Shown here one piece after another: positions 33,903-63,575 of a stretch of 64,000 nt of DNA. The stretch's first letter is position 1; each line of letters begins with the position of its first letter. The DNA is from a virus (taxonomy: Duplodnaviria; Caudoviricetes). The position numbers and the translations under genes are program-made. Location of the stretch: positions 1 to 64,000 of IMG/VR virus record IMGVR_UViG_3300023194_000002. One strand, given 5' to 3'. The notes under the pieces were generated by a model that saw only the letters and a program-made list of their open reading frames with translations, ran no database searches and was not told the origin of the DNA.

Positions 33903-34283
33903 CTACCGAGAAACGCCAACCTCGAAGCCGTGCACCTTCAGTCGTCGTGCGCAATCCCACGTGCCGCGGCTATCCGGCCCGGGCAGCGCCAGACAGATAA
34001 CATCCCAGCCGTGATCACGGGCCTCTGCGGCTTTGTCCGCGATGCGCTGATTGCGTTCGAGCAGCGCGACTCGGGTGCGCGGGCCTTCGACGCGCATCAC
34101 GCGTAGAGGCTTGCCCGCGGCCGTCGCGATCTCGACTGCGAGCGCGTCAGCTCCAGTCGGGCAGTCACCGACGATCACGACGTCGGCCAGCGCCGTAATC
34201 GTGGCATCGATATCGGCGCGCTGATTGGCCGTGAGCTCTCCACGCGTGCCCGTGATCACGACTGCGGTGCGAGGCTTGGTCAT
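33903..34283 (-). CDS. SLOG/YspA-like (DUF2493) protein
   Basis: VVITGTRG, GDCPTGADALA, RNQRI, SRGTWDC; ATG overlaps FtsK stop. Confidence 0.8.
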   Translation of the reverse strand: MTKPRTAVVITGTRGELTANQRADIDATITALADVVIVGDCPTGADALAVEIATAAGKPLRVMRVEGPRTRVALLERNQRIADKAAEARDHGWDVICLALPGPDSRGTWDCARRLKVHGFEVGVSR

Positions 34284-36451
34284 GGATTGAGCACAGGCCG
34301 TTGGTTCTTCTGCGCGGGATCCATGGGCCCGAGGATGCCCTCGCGCTCCAGCTGCATCAGTGCACGTTTGGCGCGTGGCTGGCCGATCGACATTTCGCAC
34401 ATCACTGCGCTGACAGACACCCAGCGTTGTCCTCGGACGTACGTCAGTAATCGATTGTGCAGCTCATCATCACTCAGCTGCACGGGCGCTGCTGGTGCAG
34501 CGGGCTCGGTTGTGGTGGGCGTCTCGATGACAGCCTGTTTACCGCTCTGCGCGCGCCATGCGGCGCATACGGCCTTCACCTCGTCCGGGCTGATATACGC
34601 GCTGTGCACGCGCTGCCATTCGGTCGACCCAGGCAGCATGCAGAGGCTATCTCCACGACCGAGTAGCTTTTCGGCGCCGCGGATGTCCATGACGGTCTCG
34701 CTGTCTTTGCCGGATGACACCTTGTAGGTGATACGAGTGGAGAAGTTGGCTTTGATAATGCCAGTAACGACATCCACGCTCGGGCGCTGCGTTGCGAGTA
34801 TGAGGTGCATTCCGGCTGCGCGTCCCTCTGCGGCGATGCGTGAGATCAGCAGTTCAGCCTCTTTTGCCTGAGAGATGAATGACGCGAACTCATCGATCGC
34901 GATCACGACGCGGTGATAGGGCGCATTGGACCGCGCGTTGTATTCAGCGATCTCCGACTCGCCGACTGCAGCCATGGTGGTGTAGCGGCGTTCCATCTCC
35001 TCGAGCGCCCATCGGAGCAATGCAATCCCGTCTGCAGACTGCACCGCGATCGGCGCGAGCAAATGAGGGATGCCAGCGTAGCGCGATAGCTCGACGCGTT
35101 TGGGGTCGATCATCAAGATGCGCATCTCGCTAGGTTTGCGCGTGAGCAACAGTGCCGTGAGCCAGCAGTTGAGGCCGACGCTCTTGCCTGAACCGGTGGT
35201 GCCAGCGACCAACAAGTGTGGAGCGCTGGCGAGATCGAGATACACGGGCGTGCGATCTGGAGCGAGGCCGAGCGGCATGGGGAGTGCGGCCGAGCGGCGA
35301 AGCGCGGTCCACTCGTCGCACTCCATCAGTTCACGCAGCATGACCGTCTGACGATCCTCCTCGTCGAGTGGGACCTCCATTAGGGTGACCTTCCCGCGCT
35401 GAGTTACGTTCACATGCAGCGTGTCGAGCGCCTGCGCGATCTCGGGCGCGAGCTTCTTGATCGTGCTGATTTTCGTTCCTGCAGGTGGCTCGTACTCGTA
35501 ATACGCGAGCATCGGCCCCACGTCGCCGCCAGAGACCTGGCCGCCGATGATCTCGTGCTGGTAGAGCGCACGCGTGATCTTTTTGCGGCCGGCGTCGAGC
35601 GCGCGCTGCTTGCCTGCTTTTGTGCGCTCCTTCGGTGTTGCGAGGCGCCGAATGTCCGGGAGTACGTACACAACGGGAGCAGCGTTTGGCGCTGCAATTC
35701 CCGGTAAATCCTGCTCATCGCTGTCCACCGAGGACTCGATGATGTCCGGACCGTTGTCCACGCTGTTGTCCGGCGCGTAGTCCCTCACATCAACGATGCG
35801 AGCACGCGGCGTCGGCAGCGGAGGGCGCTTCGACGGCGCCGGGTGTGACGCGGGCACCGACTCGCGCACAGTCTCTCCGTGCGTGTCGATCACGGCCTGA
35901 GGCGCGTACACACGGGGCCGTGCAGCAGCGGACGGAGCGGGTGCACGCGTAGACGCAGACAGCGCACGCGCAGCAGCAGCCTGACGCTCGATTTCACGAG
36001 CGCGAGTCCATTCGGAGGCGAACCGACGGGCCATCGAGCCGACGCGCGCGCTCAGCTGCTGCGCATGCGCAGGGCCCATAGCGCGCCGCGCAATTGCCAC
36101 CAGCACGATGGCCAGCAGTACGTAGGCCCCGAGCCCGAAGCCGCGATGAAGCCCCCCGCCCACCATTGAGCCGACGTGCCCAGACGGCGCGCCCAGCAGA
36201 TCGAGCGTCGCGGGCAGGCCCACGAGCGACAGGCTCCACCACACGCGCACGATGCCGGGGCTGCGCTGGCTGACAGTCCACCACGACTCCGCGGCGAGCC
36301 AGCCCACACAGCACCATGTGGCCCAGCCGAATGACGATGATAGCCACGCAGCAAGGCCATCCCCTGCGCGACCGAGTAGGCCGGCCAGCGCTGAGGCGAG
36401 CAGCAGCGCTGTGCCGGCGTAGGTGATTGCGTCCTTGCTGCGGCGGGTCAT
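34280..36451 (-). CDS. ftsK: Full-length FtsK/SpoIIIE-like DNA translocase (N-terminal TMs, motor, C-terminal gamma wHTH)
   Basis: Walker A GTTGSGKS, IAIDEF, HLILATQRPSVDVVTGIIKANF, GAEKLLGRGD; C-terminal DDELH...REGILGP. Confidence 0.93.
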   Translation of the reverse strand: MTRRSKDAITYAGTALLLASALAGLLGRAGDGLAAWLSSSFGWATWCCVGWLAAESWWTVSQRSPGIVRVWWSLSLVGLPATLDLLGAPSGHVGSMVGGGLHRGFGLGAYVLLAIVLVAIARRAMGPAHAQQLSARVGSMARRFASEWTRAREIERQAAAARALSASTRAPAPSAAARPRVYAPQAVIDTHGETVRESVPASHPAPSKRPPLPTPRARIVDVRDYAPDNSVDNGPDIIESSVDSDEQDLPGIAAPNAAPVVYVLPDIRRLATPKERTKAGKQRALDAGRKKITRALYQHEIIGGQVSGGDVGPMLAYYEYEPPAGTKISTIKKLAPEIAQALDTLHVNVTQRGKVTLMEVPLDEEDRQTVMLRELMECDEWTALRRSAALPMPLGLAPDRTPVYLDLASAPHLLVAGTTGSGKSVGLNCWLTALLLTRKPSEMRILMIDPKRVELSRYAGIPHLLAPIAVQSADGIALLRWALEEMERRYTTMAAVGESEIAEYNARSNAPYHRVVIAIDEFASFISQAKEAELLISRIAAEGRAAGMHLILATQRPSVDVVTGIIKANFSTRITYKVSSGKDSETVMDIRGAEKLLGRGDSLCMLPGSTEWQRVHSAYISPDEVKAVCAAWRAQSGKQAVIETPTTTEPAAPAAPVQLSDDELHNRLLTYVRGQRWVSVSAVMCEMSIGQPRAKRALMQLEREGILGPMDPAQKNQRPVLNP

Positions 36452-36582
36452 GGGCGGCACTCCTGGAGCAATTGAAGCGCGATGCAGGTCGCACAGCGGC
36501 GCTCGAGGAGCGCGCAGAACACGCCGCCTGCTGCAGCTGTGATGAGCATGGTGATCACGATCGCGCGGCTCATGGGCGTCAT
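36448..36582 (-). CDS. Small membrane protein (44 aa), absent from ORF track
   Basis: MTPMSRAIVITMLITAAAGGVFCALL...; overlapping start/stop codons on both sides. Confidence 0.65.
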   Translation of the reverse strand: MTPMSRAIVITMLITAAAGGVFCALLERRCATCIALQLLQECRP

Positions 36583-40606: not shown

Positions 40607-40670
40607 CTTTTTCATACGTAAAAGTTACGCGCAATGAGGCGCGTGATTTTTACGTATGAAAAAGTTACGC
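40607..40670. promoter_or_regulatory. Operator-like 17-bp inverted repeat between divergent genes
   Basis: CTTTTTCATACGTAAAA (40607-40623) / TTTTACGTATGAAAAAG (40648-40664); direct repeat AAAAGTTACGC. Confidence 0.7.
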
Positions 40671-42703: not shown

Positions 42704-42734
42704 AAAAAATATTGCTGGCGCGCGCCAGCTGTGA

Positions 42735-42840
42735 GATTTATTCGTCTTGCTTGCGCGGCCCCATTGAGGCGTTTCGAACCGCTACCCGCATCCGCGCAAA
42801 TTTGCAGTCATCCGCAGTTCAGCTGCGGCCCCATTGAGAC
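42735..42840 (+). CRISPR. Mini-CRISPR array (degenerate repeat - 36-nt spacer - repeat), type I-G-like repeat, no cas genes in window
   Basis: GCGGCCCCATTGAG at 42755 and 42825 (70-bp period); second repeat GTCATCCGCAGTTCAGCTGCGGCCCCATTGAGAC has a CCGCAG/CTGCGG stem. Confidence 0.75.
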
Positions 42841-42853
42841 ACGCTAAATTGAC

Positions 42854-42883
42854 AAAGCCCGCTCAACTTTGAGCGGGCTTTTT
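42854..42883. terminator. Bidirectional rho-independent terminator
   Basis: AAAGCCCGCTCAA-CT-TTGAGCGGGCTTTTT. Confidence 0.85.
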
Positions 42884-46351: not shown

Positions 46352-46543
46352 GTAGACACGGGACAACCCTCCGCGTGTCCACTCAGTGGCCAATCAGGCC
46401 GCTAACGCTTCAGAATCACTGGCGTTTCTTACGTCTGTTAATCGAATGGTCCTAGGTTCGAGTCCTAGTTCCGGAGCTAAATGATTTCGTGTGGTTAGGT
46501 CGGGGAACGTCCCTGGTTTCGGTGGACACTTCAGTGGACACTT
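46352..46543. mobile_element. attP: core matching the 3' half of a tRNA-Asn(GTT) (46435-46477), with arm-type repeats
   Basis: CT-GTT-AA loop, CTAGG-TTCGAGT-CCTAG T-arm, TTCCGGA-G acceptor; GTGGACACTT at 46522 and 46534, inverse GTGTCCAC at 46375, GTAGACAC at 46352. Confidence 0.85.
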
Positions 46544-59320: not shown

Positions 59321-59628
59321 GGCTGCACCTCGATGAGGGTGAGCAACGTCGTGAGCAGTGCCATCGCGCCAGCCTCGCCGCGATGAATGACAGACGCTGG
59401 GCCTGGAACTGCTCCAGAGGACTGCAGCCCCCGCAGCCAATCGCGAGCTTCAAGCGCGGCTTGAGTACCGCGTAGGCGCGGCGCGATGCCAGCATAGTGG
59501 AGATGCTCCGCGGATTCCTCCGCGTCTAGCAGACCCTCGCACAGCGCGCGGATCTGCTGTTGGTGAAGCGATGTCAGTCGGTCAAGGGCCTCCGCCCAGT
59601 CGACCATGCGGATCACGGGCTTGGTCAC
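59317..59628 (-). CDS. Hypothetical protein
   Basis: Coupled ORF. Confidence 0.5.
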
Positions 59629-60293
59629 GGCACCACCTCAGCGGCCTTCGCGGCCTCGATCTCACGCTCCGCGCACGCGCGGATATCCGCAAGCGCAACC
59701 TCATTATCGATCGCGCTGAAGTCCGGCACGCGCTCCATCCACGGGCACGATGCGAGATGGATGAGAGCACCCGCGGCGCCCGGGCCGATCTTGGCCTCAA
59801 GCGCGTACCCAGCCTCACCGGCTAGATGGATGGCCCATCCCGCGCGGCAATGCGTGGTGCTGCATGCTGGCTCACTCGCCTCGTTATGCCAGCTGCCCAT
59901 GTCGAGGCCTGCAGCCTCGGCGCCGATTGCCTCGAGCATCCGCTGGTGCAGACGCTCAACAACTGGGATGCCGTTGAGGTTCGCGCCGCTGAGGTACGCG
60001 CCGTTGAGGCTCGCGCCGCTGAGGTTCGCGCCGTCGAGGTCCGCGCCGTTGAGGTACGCGCCGATGAGGTACGCGTCTCTGAGGTTCGCGCCGTTGAGGT
60101 TCGCGCCGCTGAGGTTCGCGTCTCTGAGGTCCGCGCCGTCGAGGTCCGCGCCGTTGAGGTACGCGCCGATGAGGTACGCGCCGCTGAGGTTCGCGTCTCT
60201 GAGGTTCGCGCCGCTGAGGTTCGCGCCGTCGAGCGTATCCGCATCAACAGTCATCAGGACCAACCCGGTCCATCGGTGTTTGATCTCAATCAT
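59625..60293 (-). CDS. Pentapeptide-repeat protein
   Basis: About 16 A(N/D/Y/S)LxG-type repeats; C-terminal THCRAGWAI. Confidence 0.92.
59990..60236. repeat. 15-bp tandem repeat encoding the pentapeptide repeats
   Basis: Units such as GCCGCTGAGGTTCGC with variants. Confidence 0.9.
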
Positions 60294-60416
60294 ATCTCAC
60301 GCTCCAATCAAAACAATTATCGGTAAAAGACACCGCGCAAAGCGCCAGGCCGGTAAACCTCCTGGCAAATCGCGCGTAGCGCCTGCACGCTCTGCGGCGG
60401 TGTCTGAGTCTCGTGG

Positions 60417-60578
60417 TCAGTCCTCGCTATCCTCGTCCTCATCGTGATCGCCGTAGTCGGCATCAAGCTCGTCATCGGGCTCGACCTCTGCGTCGAGCAC
60501 AGGCGCCTTGACGATGGGGATCTCTACGGTCGCGTCGGGGTCAACGGTATGAGTGTCGGTATCGCTGTGCATAGTCAT
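60417..60578 (-). CDS. Small very acidic protein (53 aa), absent from ORF track
   Basis: MTMHSDTDTH...EPDDELDADYGDHDEDEDSED; GAGGAG RBS. Confidence 0.65.
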   Translation of the reverse strand: MTMHSDTDTHTVDPDATVEIPIVKAPVLDAEVEPDDELDADYGDHDEDEDSED

Positions 60579-60743
60579 AGCGCTAGTCTCCTCTGTGTGA
60601 GTGAATCGAGCTGCGAGCGCTCGAGGTGACGATCCAGGAATCCACCGGACACGGTGTTTGCAGTCTCAACTCCGCAACCCGCGCCGGGTTGAGATATTGG
60701 CCCTTGGGTCGCCACCTCCAGAGCTCGCGCGCTGGAGCAAAAT

Positions 60744-61130
60744 TCAGAACTGTACAGCCAACGCGATCTGCGGGTACTCCCGCCAGCCGCGGAAACGGAA
60801 CACCTTCACGACGCGGACGCTGCCGTCAGGCTGCGTCTGCTCGTCAGATACACGCTCCGTGGTGCTGGCTACGGGGATAATCCCGCGCGCCTGCAGAAGC
60901 GCTACGACTGCGGTGACGAAGGTCGGCTCGCCCTGCACCATCGCGTAAGCGTGGCCATCTGGTAGGGACGCGACCAGCTCGCGCGCCGCTGCTAACACGT
61001 CGGAAGTCGTGGCCTCTGGGCCAATCTCCGGGTGGCTGACGTCTACGACATCGCCAACAACAGCCTCTTCGTGGTCGAGCGGGCCAACCCCGCGCGACTC
61101 GCACAGCTGCCTGTAATCCTCGTATGTCAC
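60744..61130 (-). CDS. Csx20-like CRISPR-ancillary (candidate ring nuclease) protein
   Basis: VVDVSHPEIGP, AMVQGEPTFVTAVV, VASTTERV..DG..VKVFRFRGWREY; resembles remembered Csx20-type motifs. Confidence 0.6.
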   Translation of the reverse strand: MTYEDYRQLCESRGVGPLDHEEAVVGDVVDVSHPEIGPEATTSDVLAAARELVASLPDGHAYAMVQGEPTFVTAVVALLQARGIIPVASTTERVSDEQTQPDGSVRVVKVFRFRGWREYPQIALAVQF

Positions 61131-61327
61131 ACGCCATCTCCCGCGCCGCTTACAGCGACCGCATACGCTGCGCGCGCCTGCATCTCATTCTTGATGATGT
61201 ACTTCTTCTCCCGGCCCTTGGCCGGGGTCACGTAGACCGCCCACGTGTTGGCGATCTCGTTTCGCATGAGGTGGACCGTCGCGCGGTCTCCTCTGTATAT
61301 GTCTGCTGTGTAGATGCGCTGGTCCAT
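61127..61327 (-). CDS. Small hypothetical protein
   Basis: MDQRIYTADIY...; coupled to Csx20-like gene. Confidence 0.55.
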   Translation of the reverse strand: MDQRIYTADIYRGDRATVHLMRNEIANTWAVYVTPAKGREKKYIIKNEMQARAAYAVAVSGAGDGV

Positions 61328-61591
61328 CTCGCCTCGCTCTCCATCGCGCCGCGTTGATGGGTGGAGCATGGGACGTTTGAGACTGGACGTCAACGTCCAT
61401 ACGTCATTTTTTTTCGGCGACCGCCCTGGCGCCACGATTCGGCCACTTCCGACGGTCGTGTGCGTCAACCGGCGATGGGTGAGCACCGCGCGCTAACCGC
61501 TCGTCTGCGCGAAAAATATGGGCGGAGCGTCAGATCTCTCTGGATCGCAGCGGTCCGATCGTCGATCGTCCGCGCACTATAGGAGGGCATT

Positions 61592-62140
61592 GTGGCGCTA
61601 GGTAAATGTCGCGAGTGCGGTGTTGAGGTTAGTTCAGAAGCGAAGACGTGTCCGAAGTGTGGGATAAAAACACCGATCCGCACAACGCGATGGATCCGAT
61701 TTTCTATCATCGGAATCCTCGGCGGGCTTTGGATGATTGGCGCAATAGTCTCGAAGGAGACAGCAAATCTCTCGACGGCGTCCGGATCTTCATCCGCATA
61801 CGAATCGGCAGAATCTGCAAAGACACCGTTGGTCGTGCCCATACGCGCGCTACTCAATGCGTACAAGGCAAATGAGGTTAGCGCTGACGCACAATATAAA
61901 AAGCGCCTCGTTCAGACCACGGGCGTCGTCTCGAAAGTTGCGAAGGACATCCTCGACAAGATCTATGTGACACTCGGAACGGGGGCTCGTTTCGAGATCC
62001 CGGAAGTGCAGTGTTTCTTTTCGGATTCGGACGCGAGCGCAGTTGGCCAGCTGCGACCGGGGCAGCAGATTACGGTCCAAGGACGTGTGCACGGCAAGAT
62101 GATGAACGTCATCGTGCGCGATTGCGCATTAGCACAATGA
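61592..62140 (+). CDS. Zinc-ribbon + TM + OB-fold (tRNA_anti-like) membrane protein
   Basis: KCRECG..CPKCG, TM segment, LLNAYKANEVSADAQYK..TGVVSK. Confidence 0.8.
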   Translation: MALGKCRECGVEVSSEAKTCPKCGIKTPIRTTRWIRFSIIGILGGLWMIGAIVSKETANLSTASGSSSAYESAESAKTPLVVPIRALLNAYKANEVSADAQYKKRLVQTTGVVSKVAKDILDKIYVTLGTGARFEIPEVQCFFSDSDASAVGQLRPGQQITVQGRVHGKMMNVIVRDCALAQ

Positions 62141-62742: not shown

Positions 62743-63474
62743 CTATTTCTTTGCGCGCTTCGCGGTTGAAGTAAATTCTGGCTTTTTTTTGCGATACTTA
62801 GGCGCAGGAACTGCAACTGTAGGCGGCGTTCTGACGTCAGCTAATATCTGGTCCAACACCTCGGACGTCACAGCACTGCCGTCTGCAATAAACGTCGCTC
62901 GCGCCCGTCGCCGGACCTCTTGCCGTTGTACCTCGGTGGCGCGTCGTGCTTCAGCCGAATGGAGCCATGCGGACCAAACGTCCTCATCGAGGGTCGAGCG
63001 CGTATGTGTCATTGGCGGTGGTAAAATAGCAGGTGAACCCGTAGCTCCGCCGCTCGCATCTGACCCAGACTGCGCCGCCGCCAATAGATGGAGCAGCGCC
63101 ATCGTGCTCGGGATGCCGTTGAGCCGTGTGGCCATTTCTGCCACACACGCAATTTCACTCGGATCAGCTCGTTGAGCCTCGGGTGTTTGGGTGAATCCCA
63201 GCCAGTACGGGTTCTGCGCGATCATAGCTGCCGCGCTCGACCCTGCCTCCATCCTGGGCCCATCTGCCAGCCAGTCTTCGCTCACTCCAAATTTGAGCGC
63301 GAGCTTCTTTAGCAATTCTCGGCGTGCACCATGCTGGTCGCTCTCAAGCCTGACAATTGTTTTCAGGGTTACGTTAATATCCCTGGCGAGCGCCTCCTGC
63401 GTCATCTTTGACTTGGCGCGTAACATGCGCAGTCGCTTACCCAGCGTGTCGGCTTGATCGTCAGATTTGCTCAT
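62743..63474 (-). CDS. CI-like XRE repressor
   Basis: LGKRLRMLR..MTQEALARDINVTLKTIVRLE..LALKFGVSEDWL; no S24 peptidase domain recognised. Confidence 0.85.
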   Translation of the reverse strand: MSKSDDQADTLGKRLRMLRAKSKMTQEALARDINVTLKTIVRLESDQHGARRELLKKLALKFGVSEDWLADGPRMEAGSSAAAMIAQNPYWLGFTQTPEAQRADPSEIACVAEMATRLNGIPSTMALLHLLAAAQSGSDASGGATGSPAILPPPMTHTRSTLDEDVWSAWLHSAEARRATEVQRQEVRRRARATFIADGSAVTSEVLDQILADVRTPPTVAVPAPKYRKKKPEFTSTAKRAKK

Positions 63475-63482
63475 GGTGTCGC

Positions 63483-63575
63483 GGACATTTCTGCGATACC
63501 TAGCACGGATCAAGGGACGTTTTAGGGTAGACGTTTAGCCGTGCCGTTGACGTATGGACGTTATCGTCTCACAAT
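63483..63575. promoter_or_regulatory. Divergent immunity promoter/operator region
   Basis: TTGACG (63547-63552), 17 bp, CACAAT; four GACGT(T/A) repeats at 63516, 63530, 63549, 63557. Confidence 0.6.

Follow-up and report, generated by a model that had tools for sequence, protein, structure and literature searches.

A Phage Homolog of the Ring Nuclease Csx20 That Lacks the First Strand and Histidine Loop of Its Family

The early region of a temperate phage carries a gene for a small protein of the Csx20/MJ1673 family (NF040559, PF27247); profile and sequence comparisons make this homology secure. What sets it apart is the loss of the first β-strand (β1) and of the histidine loop. We infer that the protein binds cA4 and has an anti-CRISPR role; that it is a cA4-directed anti-type III protein, working as a weak ring nuclease or as a sponge, is a reading to which we give an even chance.

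In vitro, Csx20 breaks down cA4, and no other extrinsic ring nuclease occurs as often in type III loci (Hoikkala et al. 2025, PMC12409355); the canonical enzyme is fully active at 1 μM against 100 μM substrate (PMC12409355). Ring nuclease activity of Csx20 had been predicted from conserved His, Arg, and Asp/Glu residues (Makarova 2020, summarized in PMC8284326). Phage-borne copies are on record: Csx20 was counted in 4 of 28,114 phage genomes (PMC12409355), and csx20 homologs in acr-aca14 operons, of which Pasteurella multocida has an example, have been described as counter-defence genes that were probably co-opted (PMC13551039). The preliminary description of this DNA, which put the gene forward as a candidate new anti-CRISPR, was therefore anticipated in this respect, since phage Csx20 had already been published in both of these papers. 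Our literature search found no report of an experimentally tested viral Csx20.

Results

The Gene Lies in the Early Region of a Complete Phage Genome

The window (the whole stretch of DNA analyzed here, 64,000 nucleotides) belongs to a viral record in IMG/VR that is 84,209 bp long, has direct terminal repeats, and is estimated to be 100% complete. A complete viral record with such repeats indicates a phage genome rather than a cellular CRISPR locus, in keeping with the phage context first proposed for the gene. A search of the 84-kb record with the model for Csm1-type Cas10 (TIGR02578) found no match. The neighbors of the Csx20-like gene are phage genes, and the absence of an adjoining type III CRISPR-cas locus is what would be expected of a viral copy. 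A repeat search of the window found no CRISPR-like repeat family, and the window has no Rfam matches.

The gene lies among the early leftward genes, with the cI/Cro switch on one side and the RecE/RecT genes on the other. A cI-like HTH repressor and a Cro-like gene lie to its right; small ORFs, a pentapeptide-repeat protein, a RecE-like exonuclease, and RecT lie to its left. These neighbors agree with the early leftward operon in which the gene had been placed, and the carrier is a temperate phage. Lambdoid phages often place accessory genes between the cI/Cro switch and the RecE/RecT region. The Sie-like gene (Table 1) sits on the opposite strand and breaks the leftward run of genes, which gives it the appearance of a moron. 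The pentapeptide-repeat protein and the acidic 53-aa protein are of types able to mimic DNA and are thus candidates for further anti-defence cargo, a possible role for both.

The ORF has exactly the extent first given for it, and all of the strings quoted from it (VDVSHPEIGP, MVQGEPTFVTAVVALLQARGIIPVASTTERV, DG, and KVFRFRGWREY) are found in its translation. It is preceded by a gene for a 66-aa protein; the stop of this gene and the start of the Csx20-like gene share GTGTGA, as read from the sequence, and the resulting 4-nt overlap suggests that the two are translationally coupled. The 66-aa protein has no Pfam or PHROG family and resembles only small viral hypothetical proteins (ESM Atlas), and no Aca-type regulator (HTH or RHH) was recognized in this gene or in the small ORFs downstream. 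The gap between the 66-aa gene and the divergent Sie-like gene contains an imperfect palindrome, 45-80 nt upstream of the former; it might tentatively be taken for an operator or a promoter element that serves the two-gene unit, and no sigma-70-like promoter was scored there. The GC content of the Csx20-like gene resembles that of its neighbors.

Table 1. Positions of the Csx20-like gene, its parts, and its neighbors in the window, and of the second short homolog
Feature	Position	Strand	Description
Csx20-like ORF (P0001)	60744-61130	-	128 aa + stop, GTG start; from ORF list and translation
Csx20-homologous core, residues 22-121	60768-61067	-	End of α1, β2, α2, β3, α3, β4, β5
Nonmatching N-terminal 21 residues	61068-61130	-	Without β1 and without N-x-S-N-H loop; predicted helix 3-12
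Shine-Dalgarno-like GGGAG	61138-61142	-	7 nt upstream of the Csx20-like GTG; consensus match only
66-aa gene	61127-61327	-	Upstream of the Csx20-like ORF; ATG at 61327, GAGG 4 nt before ATG
Imperfect palindrome with GGACGT-TG-ACGTCC	61372-61405		Repeat search, 70% complementary
Sie-like protein	61592-62140	+	Zinc-ribbon and tRNA_anti-like OB-fold; PHROG "superinfection exclusion Sie-like," E = 1e-18
cI-like HTH repressor	62743-63513	-	Right of the Csx20-like gene
Pentapeptide-repeat protein	59625-60293	-	222 aa; Pfam PF00805, E = 2e-39; phrog_31265; downstream of the Csx20-like gene
Extremely acidic ORF	60417-60578	-	53 aa; early region, just downstream of the Csx20-like gene
Second Csx20 homolog without N-x-S-N-H motif	L013:144-524		ENA metagenome contig, 771 bp, 70% GC

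Several other elements of the window were noted. At 42704-42883, the stretch called a mini-array in the preliminary description, GCGGCCCCATTGAG occurs twice, with the copies about 68 nt apart. An AT-rich gap contains, at 40608-40670, a pair of 23-nt direct repeats (TTTTTCATACGTAAAAGTTACGC and a variant with 83% identity) spaced 40 nt apart, which are possibly iterons or operator sites. ARAGORN calls a 91-nt tRNA-Val (anticodon aac) at 35759-35849 (+); the call lies inside, and antisense to, an FtsK-like ORF of 726 aa (34280-36460, -) and is probably a false positive. A tRNA-Asn-like 3′ half, from the anticodon loop CTGTTAATC to the acceptor end, is found at 46430-46492, at the 3′ end of the gene for a 565-aa integrase. 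The 43-nt tRNA-Asn-like attP core has no exact match in a genome collection of 185,579 species, the FtsK-like protein has no match in the same collection of cellular genome contigs (searched for a host), and the integrase has none among cultured phages.

The Protein Is a Homolog of Csx20

The likeness to Csx20 that had been noticed in the sequence held up in profile searches. NCBIfam NF040559 (CAS_Csx20) matches residues 38-119 over profile positions 42-124 of 124 (E = 1.4e-11, 44.8 bits); as the score falls under the equivalog cut-off of 70 bits, it identifies a homolog without certifying functional equivalence. Several PADLOC Csx20 models match with E values of 9e-13 to 2e-9, among them PDLC01397 (E = 9.2e-13; residues 25-119 against profile positions 24-114 of 114). 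With a family HMM of our own, constructed from 79 stand-alone homologs with the phage protein left out, the protein scores 110-115 bits over profile positions 24-124 of 125. Exhaustive phmmer searching returned 580 relatives at E ≤ 1e-3, comprising stand-alone proteins of ~120-135 aa and the C-terminal domain of Csx1-Csx20-type fusions of 520-640 aa. The evidence for homology spans E values of 1e-11 to 1e-37. A precomputed Pfam match assigns the protein to PF27247 ("MJ1673"); a local Pfam scan (E up to 10) gave a chance match to Cdc6_C alone, and PHROGs gave nothing. Among 5.8 billion protein clusters it is a singleton.

The searches also brought up unusual members of the family. The best-scoring relative (P0004, 293 aa) consists of two Csx20 units in tandem, followed by an acidic tail, and is encoded at two loci (L003:8001-8882 and L004:2052-2933); in L003 the gene adjoins a cluster of helicase, MZB, NERD/UvrD, and Vsr genes, in L004 it adjoins genes for sortase and SpaA pilin, and neither is a CRISPR locus. 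Canonical stand-alone Csx20 genes adjoin a Lar restriction-alleviation gene (L014:492-863) and an orphan Dam-type methyltransferase gene (L015:2317-2685); these two contexts are phage-like and anti-restriction, not type III loci. Two metagenome proteins (P0006, 258 aa; P0007, 239 aa) combine a Csx20 domain with an N-terminal extension and a C-terminal, zinc-ribbon-like CxxC...CxxC extension, an architecture for which no description was found in the literature looked at.

The First Strand and the Histidine Loop Are Missing and the Core Is Retained

When 80 stand-alone members are aligned, the near-invariant positions are the N, N, and H of N-x-S-N-H(P), a Q in helix 1, and eight positions of the core. 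Per-column conservation was computed from an hmmalign alignment of 159 domains, with positions of 80% or more counted as conserved. Within profile positions 24-124 the phage protein keeps 12 of 12 conserved positions (P34, A49, G67, E68, L79, G83, R93, D102, G103, F111, F113, and R117); its retained core motifs are G-E after β3, T-T-E-R after β4, the D-G turn, and F-x-F and R in β5. Of the five conserved positions of profile 1-23 it has none (N6, N9, and H10, conserved at 85-92% in the 159 domains; W15, 83%; Q19, 92%). The N, N, and H that follow β1 have no counterpart in it, just as the preliminary description had remarked on the lack of an NHP-like motif. H10 is the only near-invariant histidine of the family, and its absence makes ring-nuclease activity of the phage protein doubtful.

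The missing segment is not encoded nearby: a six-frame hmmsearch with filters off found profile positions 1-23 in no frame of 60400-61900. We also considered a split or frameshifted gene, in which the C terminus of the upstream ORF (...AVAVSGAGDGV) would be the displaced β1. Fusions of the upstream ORF to the Csx20-like ORF (-1, +2, and with X at the junction) ruled this out; the match stays at 24-124, and the score goes from 115.1 to 113.3 bits. Reads of one soil metagenome gave tiny fragments only, none of which spans the 5′ junction at 61130. Within the core, H33 replaces a family position that is hydrophobic (F in 68%). The terminal branch leading to the phage protein is not long (0.54 in FastTree and 0.41 in IQ-TREE, against a family median of 0.58).

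Structure Models Predict a Four-Stranded Core and a Homodimer

The AF2 model has a mean pLDDT of 85.5, with values of ~60 for residues 1-30 and above 90 for residues 31-120; the high core values stem from the alignment, and in the complex run the pLDDT is only 63-64. Its secondary structure (H3-12, E28-30, H42-55, E62-64, H69-81, E85-99, and E105-118) can be set against that of a canonical member (P0013; AlphaFold, pLDDT 98), which has E2-5, H15-25, E28-31, H42-57, E63-66, H70-82, E86-100, and E106-119. Exactly β1 (E2-5 in the canonical member) and its loop are gone, which leaves four of five strands; the predicted helix 3-12 probably stands in for α1. By analogy with Rossmann-like CARF folds β1 would be central, so the fold of the phage protein may be unstable.

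Structure searches with the model gave little. Foldseek returned nothing significant, with CARF proteins at E values of about 0.03-0.2. The best VIA-align match (Z 5.6) is an unrelated deacetylase (rmsd 4.7, 95 aligned); CARF matches follow with Csm6 (8jbc; Z 4.4, rmsd 4.8, 105 aligned) and Can2 (8bao; Z 4.1, rmsd 3.9, 79 aligned). As a control, a canonical Csx20 model reached a Z of 6.8 or less, with SAVED and CARF matches at 5.1-6.4, so that the comparison is uninformative for both proteins. A search by sequence found no Csx20 structure in the PDB.

The protein is predicted to form a homodimer (ipSAE 0.56, against 0.02 for the best of three controls). Among proteins of solved structure, 20 of 30 homo-pairs come up to this mark, as does 1 of 23 single chains. 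At least 89% of contacts are common to the dimer runs, and the partner pLDDT is at least 63. The predicted interface consists of residues 37-42, 45-46, 65-70, 72-77, 88, 90-92, and 114-125; it does not include the N terminus and makes use of the retained conserved segments 65-70, 90-92, and 114-125. The dimer score may reflect a likeness to known CARF dimers.

One Other Homolog Shares the Truncation

Most domains among the best matches (148 of 160) begin within the first ten profile positions. Two apparent truncated homologs were set aside, one (P0087) as a gene with a mis-called start that has MVNLSNHP in frame upstream and the other (P0050) as a frameshifted canonical gene. Among the ~150 best relatives, a protein encoded on a short metagenome contig (L013; Table 1) is the sole other clear case of the truncated form. 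Counted from the ATG at 144 it has 127 aa, although its true start is uncertain; this ATG abuts a divergent gene. The gene contains a run of eight G, and the start chosen by the gene caller lies 34 codons too late (P0017, 93 aa). No N-motif is present in any frame of the contig. Although the frame stays open for 32 residues ahead of the profile match, that match begins no earlier than position 20.

The L013 protein (P0017/L013) is the relative of highest identity to the phage protein P0001, with 39% identity over residues 7-124 (E = 3e-24), and a G-P-(L)-D-H segment before β2 is common to both. In trees on 101 columns the two are nearest to each other by path with FastTree but are not sisters with IQ-TREE; a constraint that makes them sisters is not rejected (p-AU 0.43). 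If their likeness is due to common descent, the short form has survived a long divergence. Searching with the L013 protein brought no more truncated members to light.

The other viral copies differ in this respect. Those with a readable N terminus (Rm378p002 of Rhodothermus phage RM378, which is the viral Csx20 homolog found among cultured phages, and copies in L009, L010, and L011) all keep the His-bearing N-motif, and the phage protein does not group with other viral copies in FastTree. No sister phages of the carrier were found in viral contigs or metagenome contigs, and cultured phages offered the distant RM378 only.

Discussion

In the mechanism that we propose, the temperate phage would probably express the Csx20-like protein early after infection or induction, together with the 66-aa partner gene. 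The protein would form a two-fold symmetric homodimer through α3, the G67-E68 loop, T90-T91-E92 beside the invariant R93, and the C-terminal strand; cA4 made by the host Cas10 would be bound in a pocket at the dimer interface and kept from effectors of the Csx1, Can2, or Cami1 type. Slow or absent cleavage is expected from the missing β1 and N-x-S-N-H loop, and the protein would be a stoichiometric sponge or a weak ring nuclease, not a fast enzyme. Besides the sequence evidence, this proposal draws on the predicted homodimer, on the position of the gene in the early region of a complete viral genome, and on the precedents of phage csx20 genes (PMC12409355, PMC13551039) and of Csx15 as mainly a cA4 sponge (PMC13148439). 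The notion of a captured host signal off-switch, raised at the outset, fits a true homolog in the early region of a phage genome without Csm1-type Cas10. Its companion, that the protein is a ring nuclease, stands as to the family and is doubtful as to the activity, given what is missing from the N terminus.

Support for function comes from the complete set of conserved core positions, the normal branch, and the intact anatomy of the gene, which together suggest no decay. These features count against an account that we consider rather unlikely, namely that the gene is an inactive remnant of a canonical phage or host csx20 that lost its 5′ end by recombination in the mosaic early region and whose product neither folds nor binds. 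The open frame, the GGGAG motif, and the coupled start argue against such a remnant. A recent truncation would, however, leave the core residues and the branch length normal, so these two are compatible with it. For a remnant speaks the nature of the loss, a core strand and the best-conserved loop of the family, as do the singleton status of a protein without conserved relatives and the lack of a clear second case among the ~150 best relatives other than L013. Against it, L013 has the same boundary and the same loop motif at only 39% identity, and two fresh accidents are hard to credit. Tailed phage genomes, moreover, tend to shed useless DNA. The likeness of the two short proteins can be carried further, to a small Csx20 lineage that lost the loop and kept the dimer and the remaining pocket, its members being CARF-derived cA4 sponges; we regard this as a long shot. 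Sponging has been argued to be a poor strategy against type III systems, as cOA is made in large amounts (PMC13148439).

It is equally improbable, in our judgment, that the phage protein is a fully active ring nuclease, with catalysis by other residues (H33 in the S-H-P after β2, or H20 in G-P-L-D-H) or with no need of the histidine. H33 stands at a family-hydrophobic position and H20 in the loop common with L013, and the other polar residues proposed for the family, R93 and E68, are retained; many CARF ring nucleases (Crn1, Csm6) position the 2′-OH without a general-base histidine. The models give no structural support for H20 or H33 at the pocket, however, and neither is among the confident interface residues; judging from the Rossmann-like fold, the α1-β2 loop would be at the edge of the sheet opposite the usual ligand site, and the 85-92% conservation of N, N, and H argues for their importance. 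Very improbable is a domain repurposed for another nucleotide signal (cA3 from CBASS, or a Panoptes-type decoy) or as a dominant-negative subunit with a host Csx20 or Csx1-Csx20 fusion. The retention of the dimer interface despite loss of the presumed catalytic loop would suit such a change, as would the occurrence of Csx20 domains fused to Csx1-type effectors and the finding that canonical Csx20 has some cA3 activity at high concentration (PMC12409355). The remaining ligand-pocket residues, however, are those of a cA4-specific family, and a poisoned host ring nuclease would raise cA4 to the harm of a lytic phage.

Should the protein still protect a phage, then either catalysis can do without the histidine loop or sequestration is enough by itself to weaken type III signaling, and each outcome would bear on the working of ring nucleases and on the escape of phages from cOA-based immunity. 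A true sponge lineage would provide the first viral inhibitor of type III CRISPR signaling that acts by sponging; a dead protein would make this merely a decaying cargo gene. The case is of modest interest unless the sponge reading holds.

Comparison with Known Systems

The phage protein shares with canonical Csx20 the homology over about 100 residues, the conserved core residues, a predicted homodimer, and a similar size (128 aa against about 120-135 aa); it differs in being without β1, the N-x-S-N-H-P loop, and the conserved W and Q of α1. Canonical Csx20 belongs to type III loci, whereas this gene is in a phage genome and not beside cas10. Like the published phage and prophage csx20, it is a stand-alone phage gene for which a co-opted anti-type III counter-defence is proposed; unlike the viral copies of RM378, L009, L010, and L011, it has not kept the His-bearing motif, and unlike the csx20-aca14 operons, it has no RHH or HTH Aca-type gene recognized beside it.

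The job proposed for the protein, removal of cA4 that disarms type III effectors, is that of AcrIII-1/Crn2 (DUF1874), and AcrIII-1 is also small and dimeric. The two are unrelated in fold and family (no DUF1874 match in the Pfam scan, E up to 10), and AcrIII-1 is very fast, whereas the phage protein lacks the presumed catalytic loop of its own family. If it binds cA4 and barely cleaves it, Csx15, mainly a cA4 sponge and a slow ring nuclease (PMC13148439), would be a possible analogue; both are small CARF-superfamily proteins but of different families, with no homology shown beyond the superfamily, and Csx15 binds cA4 between stacked dimers in filaments and is reported absent from phage genomes (PMC13148439). 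The viral SAVED-domain ring nuclease (PMC12751052) is likewise a virus-borne copy of a host cA4-sensing fold directed against type III systems; there the fold is SAVED, not that of Csx20, and the activity has been demonstrated.
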